Source: Catajapyx aquilonaris (Eukaryota). Taken from it: a stretch of 64,000 nucleotides of DNA. The stretch lies in contig KZ538366.1 of NCBI GenBank assembly GCA_000934665.2, positions 1 to 64,000 on the forward strand, in the 5' to 3' direction. The notes under the pieces were generated by a model. It had not been told where the DNA came from, did not search any database, and saw only the letters and a list, made by a program, of their open reading frames with translations. Made by a program: the position numbers and the translations under genes. Positions 2,190-3,720 of the stretch are shown in pieces (within the stretch, counting starts at the first letter, position 1; the number at the start of each line of letters is the position of its first letter).

Positions 2190-3720
2190 TGGAAGACATT
2201 GATTCCTTGGCTTGTGTCCAGGAGCAAACTACACTTAAATCTTTTCTCTTTTTTTTGTTTGTTAAATATATTTACATCTAAAATTGGATTAACAATCACA
2301 CAGTCCATTGGAAGACTCGTAGAACACGACACAGGAAGAGGAGTTTTTACGACATGCGTGCAATTTATTTTTTGTGTGTGTGCGGATATAATGTTTTTTT
2401 TCTTTTAAATAATGACAACTGGGGTTAAATTACCACACCATGCATACTTGTAGGTTCATGTAGAATATATGCTACAATATAGGCAATTCTGGTATTGCAA
2501 TGTTACACTGTCCCGGCCTTTAATAGTCGCGATGGGTTCCTGGACTTTTTTTTTTTCAATTAATTATTATTTTATTGCAGTCGTTTTGCGGACTACATTT
2601 TTATAACCTAAGTGCACACTGAAAACAGCAAAAGCAGTTGTACTTTTTAAAAAGAAATTAAAAAAGTGCACACATTCTAAATCACACTTTACTTCCGGAC
2701 AGATGACAACCACTATGATGCTTATTTAGGTGTTATCCAGTTCAATATTAGATATGTACTACATGTGACCTAATATTTACGTCTGGACAACAGCTGAACA
2801 AGCAAGCAGTTTGATTCACCCTGTAGAATAATGGAAGTAAAATGATTTTTAGAATCTATATAGGCGTGTACTGTTCTAGACAAAAAGTTCGGAGGGAATC
2901 TGAACTTATTGTCCGGCAGAGTACTTATCACGGATACATGTAACAAAAAAACGTGTCTCATTCATACCCGTTTGGAAGACATGCTGTTGTACCGAAGTGT
3001 GTGTATATGTATTGAACTTATCGATTGGAAGACTATAGAGACCAAGCCGTGCGACCTGACAATTATTTTTTGAGAAATATCAGCTGGTTAAAATTAAACT
3101 GGCTGTTTTAATATGGACTAAAAGACTCTCCAGAAAAAGGCACGCACTCCGTTATGTTTAATTAGGGGTTAACTTTTCCGGTGAGAAAAAGGCAAGAATT
3201 TTTTTCTCTCTCTTTTAAATACATACGGGGAGGAAGACGTGACATTCGTACTGCAGTAACACCATTATTACAAGCAAGATTGGAAGACATTACTTCATGT
3301 ACAATGGTTATTTTTTTCCCTGCATTATGTGTATATATAATGGAAGACTCAGAGCTACATTTTTTTTCTCATTTCTTAAATTTTTTTTAAATGATCACAA
3401 TCAGCTTAACACACGCACGTGCCCAAGTGTGCCACACACACACTTTCACCCTGAATGTTAACTACAGATTTTTTTTCTTTTTATAATATATATATACTTT
3501 ACATAAAATACAATTGTTAGCCTACGAATATTCATCATCAATTAGTCTGTCCCATAACCAGACGCTTCACACATGATGGCGCTGTTCGAAAATATCTGCT
3601 TGTTAAATTATTAATTCAATTCCCCACTTACCTCAAATTGAGACTTGGTAATTATTCAAGGTTTGGATGGAAGACTTTCTTTTCGTTCATATTGGTTTCG
3701 CTTTGCTTTAAATGGAAGAC
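2190..3720 (-). promoter_or_regulatory. Cluster of miR-7 seed-match sites (GY-box GTCTTCC[A]) in the putative VGAT 3'UTR
   Basis: Plus-strand TGGAAGAC at 2190, 2309, 2973, 3026, 3281, 3341, 3668 and 3713, plus GGAAGAC at 3232. All are in one orientation with unrelated flanks. Mature miR-7 begins UGGAAGAC. Confidence 0.75.

Follow-up and report, generated by a model that had tools for sequence, protein, structure and literature searches.

The window analysed here is a stretch of 64,000 nucleotides (nt) of Catajapyx aquilonaris DNA (contig KZ538366.1, positions 1 to 64,000 of the forward strand; assembly GCA_000934665.2). On its minus strand lies a putative gene for VGAT, the vesicular inhibitory amino acid transporter, and the 3' untranslated region (3'UTR) of this gene contained eight copies of the octamer GTCTTCCA and one further copy of the heptamer GTCTTCC, all in a single orientation. 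It is highly probable that these are selected, functional target sites of the microRNA miR-7, that the output of VGAT protein depends strongly on miR-7, and that the arrangement is a switch of the type described in Drosophila with about three times as many sites. Three marks of miR-7 targets were found together: complementarity to the seed, a position in the sense 3'UTR of an expressed mRNA, and preferential conservation.

The miR-7 seed has been printed as GGAAGAC (bioRxiv 10.1101/2025.09.05.674572; PMC8529377). All nine sites were exact complements of this seed (miR-7 nucleotides 2-8), and in the 8mers an A lies opposite nucleotide 1; an A directly followed the seed match in 8 of the 9 sites of the 3'UTR supported by RNA contigs. 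In transcript order, the 8mers were located on the minus strand at 3713-3720 (site 1, 372 nt past the stop codon), 3668-3675 (site 2, 45 nt beyond site 1), 3341-3348 (site 3), 3281-3288 (site 4), 3026-3033 (site 5), 2973-2980 (site 6), 2309-2316 (site 7, past internal AATAAA hexamers at 2576 and 2369) and 2190-2197 (site 8, 1895 nt past the stop). The 7mer-m8 site, GTCTTCC followed by T, was at 3232-3238. The preliminary description had reported these eight octamers and the heptamer, in one orientation between 2190 and 3720, and every coordinate was reproduced.

Counting showed that the array is far denser than expected. The plus-strand form of the octamer, TGGAAGAC, occurred at 1495, 2190, 2309, 2973, 3026, 3281, 3341, 3668, 3713 and 25340; these 10 matches in the window were all on the plus strand, against 1.95 expected (standard deviation 1.44), and none of 100 dinucleotide shuffles of the window gave as many as 10. 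The heptamer GGAAGAC added the site at 3232 within 2190-3720 and had a window total of 16 (6.72 expected). In the transcribed UTR (2009-4091; 2083 nt, 63% A+T), the eight GTCTTCCA compared with 0.021 expected under a mononucleotide model and 0.029 under a first-order Markov model, with a Poisson P of about 1e-17, which becomes about 8e-13 when all 65,536 8-mers are corrected for. GTCTTCCA was the only 8-mer outside low-complexity sequence with at least five copies in this UTR. In the 61.3 kb of the window beyond 1400-4091, one copy was found with both strands pooled (25340), so that the motif is locally uncommon.

The flanks of the sites were mutually unrelated, both in a flank comparison and in a repeat search, which agrees with the earlier view that the array is not a tandem repeat. 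The repeat families that overlapped sites were matches of 14-17 nt centred on the motif only, and the other families were of low complexity.

The gene comprises three coding exons on the minus strand (7116-6766, 5606-4866 and 4532-4092) and encodes an amino-acid transporter. The first exon probably begins with the ATG at 7116-7114, has the conserved EWQAGWNVTNAIQ motif at its 3' end, and is followed by the donor GT at 6765-6764. Exon 2 matched Aa_trans over profile positions 16-270 (Pfam PF01490, E 7.5e-56), and the last exon matched the same family (PF01490, E 4.1e-27) and ended in the stop codon TAA at 4094-4092. Its translation aligned to the C-terminal end of VGAT in termite-like loci, where the stop codon follows immediately.

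The protein search revealed 407 proteins at E <=0.001 among 1330 candidates, and the best relatives were from arthropods. The top match of exon 2 was a cladoceran VGAT-family protein (78% identical), and most of the named proteins among the best 120 of the 407 matches were called 'vesicular inhibitory amino acid transporter'. A quick maximum-likelihood tree placed the window protein within a clade of 33 rows (98% support) without resolving its place inside it; from its named rows, the clade appears to be pancrustacean. A search of the PDB sequences with exon 2 gave no match. Judged by its Aa_trans domain (PF01490) and its nearest named proteins, the gene is VGAT (SLC32), the identity proposed in the preliminary description.

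Of the words sampled from the region, 97% were present in one public sequencing run, of unrecorded kind, and contigs assembled from this run were mapped to positions 1-7500. The contigs skipped about 4532-4865 and 5606-6765, with CT..AC ends that read as GT..AG on the minus strand, and 255-314 with GT..AG ends on the plus strand. Because three introns with canonical ends were skipped, on both strands, the run was taken to be RNA. One RNA contig of 3691 nt consisted of the blocks 2009-4531, 4865-5605 and 6765-7154, and these agreed with the window at every position. This contig unites the spliced VGAT coding exons with 2009-4091 on the minus strand, which is thus a minimum 3'UTR of 2083 nt, and therefore all eight 8mers and the 7mer lie in transcribed 3'UTR, as had been supposed from the sequence.

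The RNA assembly was interrupted at an (ATT)n microsatellite (1941-2008), and therefore the true 3' end of VGAT lies further on. More RNA contigs covered 1742-1940 and 1077-1469, with a strand that could not be read from the contigs, and together the contigs tiled 1077-4531; 6251-6750 and 7251-7500 were without cover. Assembled contigs of this kind show neither strand nor 3' end. On the minus strand, AATAAA hexamers were located at 2576, 2369, 1825 and 1779, and the last two (1774-1825, first bases 1825 and 1779) are candidate distal polyadenylation signals of VGAT.

Related VGAT loci were collected by scanning metagenome contigs with a VGAT protein alignment. Of 310 pattern-matching stretches, 94 proved to encode relatives, from which the best 80 were taken (L001-L080). 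A C-terminal match and a stop codon were present in 72 of the 80 loci; L035, L050, L052, L056, L061, L062, L065 and L068 lacked one or the other and were dropped. The 72 loci were reduced to 55 non-redundant groups by shared 12-mers 3' of the stop. Lineage labels were taken from the quick tree or from the best named match; the group representatives L043, L057, L060, L064, L069, L071, L072 and L080, which were shorter than 200 aa, were labelled by the best named match alone.

In the first kb past the stop of the 55 groups (44.7 kb), GTCTTCCA ranked first of the 65,536 8-mers by every measure. At least one copy was found in 22 of the 55 groups and at least two in 18. The motif occurred 67 times in the sense orientation and 2 times in the antisense orientation, and in the kb 5' of the stop (52 kb in total) it had 0 copies. 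The 1120 8-mers with its base composition averaged 0.62.

The array followed lineage. Over all downstream sequence of each contig, at least two 8mers past the stop were found in 9 of 11 copepod-like groups, 3/3 cladoceran-like groups, 3 of 4 insect-like groups, and all four groups of an unplaced clade whose best named relatives were insects (63-65% identity), which made 19 of the 22 pancrustacean-like groups. The corresponding fractions were 1/7 for acariform-mite-like groups, 0/16 for mollusc/annelid-like groups and 0/10 for long-branch or unplaced groups. The preliminary description had proposed that site number be compared in related species; an array recurs in most of the pancrustacean-like groups. 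The window, with eight 8mers, had the most of any locus examined; the other loci had at most seven.

Among the insect-like groups, a mayfly-like contig held five 8mers. The termite-like loci appeared to lack sites within 1.5-3 kb of the stop, and this apparent absence was overturned by the termite-like locus L029, which had none in its first 3 kb and seven GTCTTCCA within about 820 nt further on (L029:8191-9012, +3292 to +4106 from the stop). Such a distal array suggests a very long 3'UTR or an intron within the 3'UTR.

A blastn comparison of the window UTR with the downstream regions of all relatives gave only low-complexity or motif-centred matches (E >=0.08). With no UTR similarity past the motif, it is therefore the presence of an array that is conserved and not alignable sequence, and no site-by-site orthology is claimed. 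At the 79 sites in 23 groups of the relatives, an A followed the seed match in 68 (86%), and the extended consensus was CAA-GTCTTCC-A, with C at -3 in 41/79, A at -2 in 56/79 and A at -1 in 42/79; the window's own sites matched the CAA context weakly. Clusters of one 8-mer that recur without other similarity are what selection acting on the motif as such leaves behind.

Arrays were also found 5' of the start codon. Clusters of GTCTTCCA lay less than 400 nt before the putative ATG in mite-like loci: four copies in L011 (4809-4953), two in L033 (5573-5681), three in L036 (1108-1251) and five in L055 (5296-5556). The mite-like locus L010 had no copy in the 400 nt 5' of its putative ATG. Two cladoceran-like contigs, intron-less and mRNA-like, carried one (L013, 51-58) and two (L014, 292-318) copies in the 5'UTR. 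Among the groups for which an ATG could be proposed (13), GTCTTCCA was the top 8-mer 5' of it, with 17 sense copies, 0 antisense, and at least two copies in five groups. The window itself had no GTCTTCCA 5' of the VGAT ATG. Arrays in 5' leaders are unusual for microRNA sites. The 5' arrays and the broad arthropod range were read from unannotated metagenome contigs with taxon labels given by similarity.

In L057, three apparent 'upstream' sites were discarded as a product of assembly, because the contig's initial 25 nt (within 1-60) recur at 2066 (2066-2125). The terminal duplication was probably caused by its repeated sites, which are spaced by 17 nt.

A link between miR-7 and VGAT in a title or abstract was found, among the matches listed, only in the preprint of Loker and Desplan, which reports that miR-7 silences Drosophila VGAT via 8mers in its 3'UTR (bioRxiv 10.1101/2025.09.05.674572). 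The statement in the preliminary description that no miR-7/VGAT circuit had been described is therefore out of date. According to the text of the preprint, the 522 nt of the fly VGAT 3'UTR contain three conserved 8mers for miR-7, a number given as the highest for any fly gene, and their conservation was demonstrated across drosophilids. Transcripts of VGAT are made in all fly neurons and their translation is repressed in those that are not GABAergic (releasing gamma-aminobutyric acid, GABA); deletion of the sites or loss of miR-7 derepresses VGAT. The activity of miR-7 is about equal in GABAergic and other neurons, and escape is achieved via a masking long non-coding RNA (lncRNA), Gul, with guide-like matches that pair with the sites (bioRxiv 10.1101/2025.09.05.674572).

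A term search of the main text of the preprint gave no match for crustacea, Daphnia, arthropod, mosquito or vertebrate; its supplements might compare more widely (bioRxiv 10.1101/2025.09.05.674572). Reads of mir-7 have been tabulated for Daphnia magna (PMC6828783), and the microRNA is therefore present in crustaceans. In rat, GAT-3 and not VGAT is given as a predicted miR-7a-5p target (PMC8529377).

[quoted passage not shown] The outcome would be a near-binary off-switch on VGAT protein wherever miR-7 is active and the sites are free. GABAergic neurons would escape either by having no miR-7 activity or by masking of the sites, as by Gul in Drosophila. We infer the expression of miR-7 in the window species, its binding to and repression of VGAT mRNA, the cell-type logic and the GABAergic escape. 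The off-switch proposed in the preliminary description thus stood in one part and not in the other: selected target sites are supported by the 19 of 22 pancrustacean-like groups and by the fly experiments, but exclusion of VGAT from miR-7-positive neurons is unlike the fly logic, in which Gul masks the sites.

Several observations weigh against the reading as miR-7 target sites. Adjacent sites in the window were 45-664 nt apart, against mostly 12-80 nt in the relatives, and a spacing of 45-60 nt occurred in only four adjacent window pairs. The internal AATAAA hexamers at 2576 and 2369 could produce shorter VGAT isoforms without the last two sites, and antisense or read-through RNA of the convergent neighbour could be among the contig cover. 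Three pancrustacean-like groups had no clear array: L009 had 0 in its 296 nt, L016 had two 7mers besides a single 8mer, and L001 had a single 8mer over 3 kb. The array of L029 lies 3.3-4.1 kb past the stop, and its membership in the transcript is putative. The taxon labels of the metagenome contigs, moreover, derive from protein similarity and an unfinished quick tree.

Of the other explanations, the one that survives best, though it is unlikely, is that the element is read by another binder, an RNA-binding protein or a complementary RNA, and that the seed match is coincidental or secondary. The CAA context of the relatives' sites is a weak hint of this, since an A at -2 would not pair with nucleotide 10 of mature miR-7. 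The mite-like clusters, less than 400 nt 5' of a putative start codon, are placed unusually for microRNA sites, and in the fly the lncRNA Gul does pair with the same sites (bioRxiv 10.1101/2025.09.05.674572). However, the invariant core is the exact 7-nt complement of the miR-7 seed, the A that comes next in 86% of the relatives' sites is a mark of Argonaute target recognition, and the window sites do not closely fit the CAA consensus. Fly genetics, moreover, shows that miR-7 itself is needed (bioRxiv 10.1101/2025.09.05.674572).

It is still less probable that the VGAT mRNA serves as a miR-7 sponge like CDR1as/ciRS-7, titrating miR-7 instead of being its target. The presence of nine sites on a single RNA would suit a sponge, and an mRNA said to be made in all fly neurons would be an abundant binder (bioRxiv 10.1101/2025.09.05.674572). 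However, deletion of the sites alters VGAT output in the fly, and the authors set their mechanism against sponges (bioRxiv 10.1101/2025.09.05.674572). The contigs contained no back-splice joint and no joint of an independent UTR RNA, only three ordinary introns, an observation that cannot prove absence. The density in the window was 3.8 sites per kb on a coding mRNA, whereas CDR1as, a mammalian circular RNA, has dozens of miR-7 sites; a sponge in this sense does not code for protein, is usually circular and bears dozens of sites, and the VGAT transcript is not of that kind. The mRNA-borne sponge offered earlier as an alternative thus found no support.

There is a very small probability that the functional RNA is the plus strand, that is, an antisense or read-through transcript of the R-spondin-like neighbour carrying eight copies of TGGAAGAC, which matches the 5' end of miR-7, and acting as a cis-encoded mask or decoy. 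The neighbour is convergent, the strandless RNA contigs tile 1077-4531, and fly Gul acts via similar guide-like matches (bioRxiv 10.1101/2025.09.05.674572). However, the plus-strand AATAAA at 1872, past the R-spondin-like gene, would terminate the neighbour's mRNA short of the array, the array shares its contig with VGAT exons whose splicing is on the minus strand, and the relatives carry the motif in the sense orientation of VGAT regardless of the downstream sequence. An origin by chance, from low-complexity sequence or from a dispersed repeat is effectively refuted: the UTR is A+T-rich with microsatellites, but the Poisson P value, the unrelated flanks, the single copy in the rest of the window and the recurrence in other species all oppose it.

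The finding of selected target sites for miR-7 in VGAT has a wider meaning, because in the fly the capacity to release GABA is decided post-transcriptionally via miR-7 acting on a broadly made VGAT mRNA (bioRxiv 10.1101/2025.09.05.674572). The original idea was sound, but the circuit is not of a new kind, having already been described in Drosophila; its wide arthropod distribution and the mite-like 5' arrays appear to be new. The data indicate that the connection between VGAT and miR-7 is widespread among arthropods and that this crustacean-like animal has a much enlarged form of it (8-9 sites), which gives evolutionary depth to the fly mechanism. The loci also provide natural variants for relating site number to the sharpness of the switch, differing in the number of sites (3 to 9), in their spacing (tight or loose) and in their position (3'UTR or 5' leader).

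The arguments are evenly balanced on a broader proposal, that the gating of VGAT by miR-7 is a trait of great age in arthropods, shared by copepod-like, cladoceran-like, insect-like and other pancrustacean lineages and by acariform mites. It would have been selected for hundreds of millions of years with turnover in the position and number of sites, it would have been moved or added to the 5' leader in mites, and its largest array would be the present one. If this is true, post-transcriptional gating of GABAergic identity, possibly with a masking RNA of the Gul type, is older than insects, and few multi-site microRNA targets are as deeply conserved as VGAT. The place to look for Gul-like masking RNAs is beside Gad1 in crustacean, copepod and mite genomes, where such an RNA would carry clustered TGGAAGAC matches complementary to the sites of VGAT; no Gad1 was found by Pfam in the 64-kb window.

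The convergent neighbour on the plus strand (3-1375) is R-spondin-like, with matches to Pfam PF15913 (Furin-like_2) and PF19028 (TSP1_spondin). It has a furin-like cysteine-rich repeat, a spondin-type TSP1 domain and a strongly basic C-terminal tail to 1372; its plus-strand GT..AG joint (254/315) was present in an RNA contig, and its open reading frame extends over 1019-1372. The further octamer copy noted in the preliminary description was present at 1495-1502, where it is the tenth GTCTTCCA on the minus strand, 2590 nt past the VGAT stop and 120 nt past the stop of the neighbour. Its membership in the VGAT transcript is doubtful, and it is probably inside the 3'UTR of the convergent gene, which would thus carry one TGGAAGAC of its own.

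A scan of 1-8000 with Rfam gave nothing at or above the gathering score of any family. The best score, 51.8 bits where the threshold is 137, belonged to a plant microRNA family at a long palindromic stretch, 779-937, between exons of the neighbour; the stretch probably represents an inverted repeat that forms a hairpin, for example a small transposon.

Elsewhere in the window, Pfam analysis revealed five plus-strand matches: a fragment with an ionotropic glutamate receptor ligand-binding domain (15303-15911), FAM91 (25517-27009), an ABCD-type ABC transporter (34907-37121), a ubiquitin-like segment (38683-39360) and an ADIP-domain protein (61227-61790). The lone distant TGGAAGAC (25340) lies just 5' of the FAM91 exons, on their sense strand.

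Compared with known miR-7 systems, the window array shares with the fly VGAT/miR-7/Gul system the gene, the GTCTTCCA 8mer seed match, the place in the 3'UTR and the presence of several sites per UTR. Several miR-7 8mers in a VGAT 3'UTR, one mark of a fly-type gate, were read here from sequence and RNA contigs. The window array differs in having eight 8mers and a 7mer, more widely spaced, in at least 2083 nt, whereas the fly has three in 522 nt.

The GY-box is the name given to GTCTTCC in the 3'UTRs of Enhancer of split (E(spl)) and Bearded Notch-target genes, which have one or a few boxes each. It is the same 7-nt complement of the miR-7 seed as in the window, but the genes with GY-boxes belong to a neurogenesis pathway and are not concerned with transmitter identity. 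The preprint also describes these miR-7 sites as exactly complementary to 'proneural box' sequences of other mRNAs, and it names CDR1as/ciRS-7 as a sponge (bioRxiv 10.1101/2025.09.05.674572). CDR1as/ciRS-7 resembles the window array in carrying many miR-7 seed matches on one RNA in a single orientation. However, it is circular and non-coding, and its sites are far more numerous and more closely packed, whereas the window has nine sites on a linear coding mRNA.

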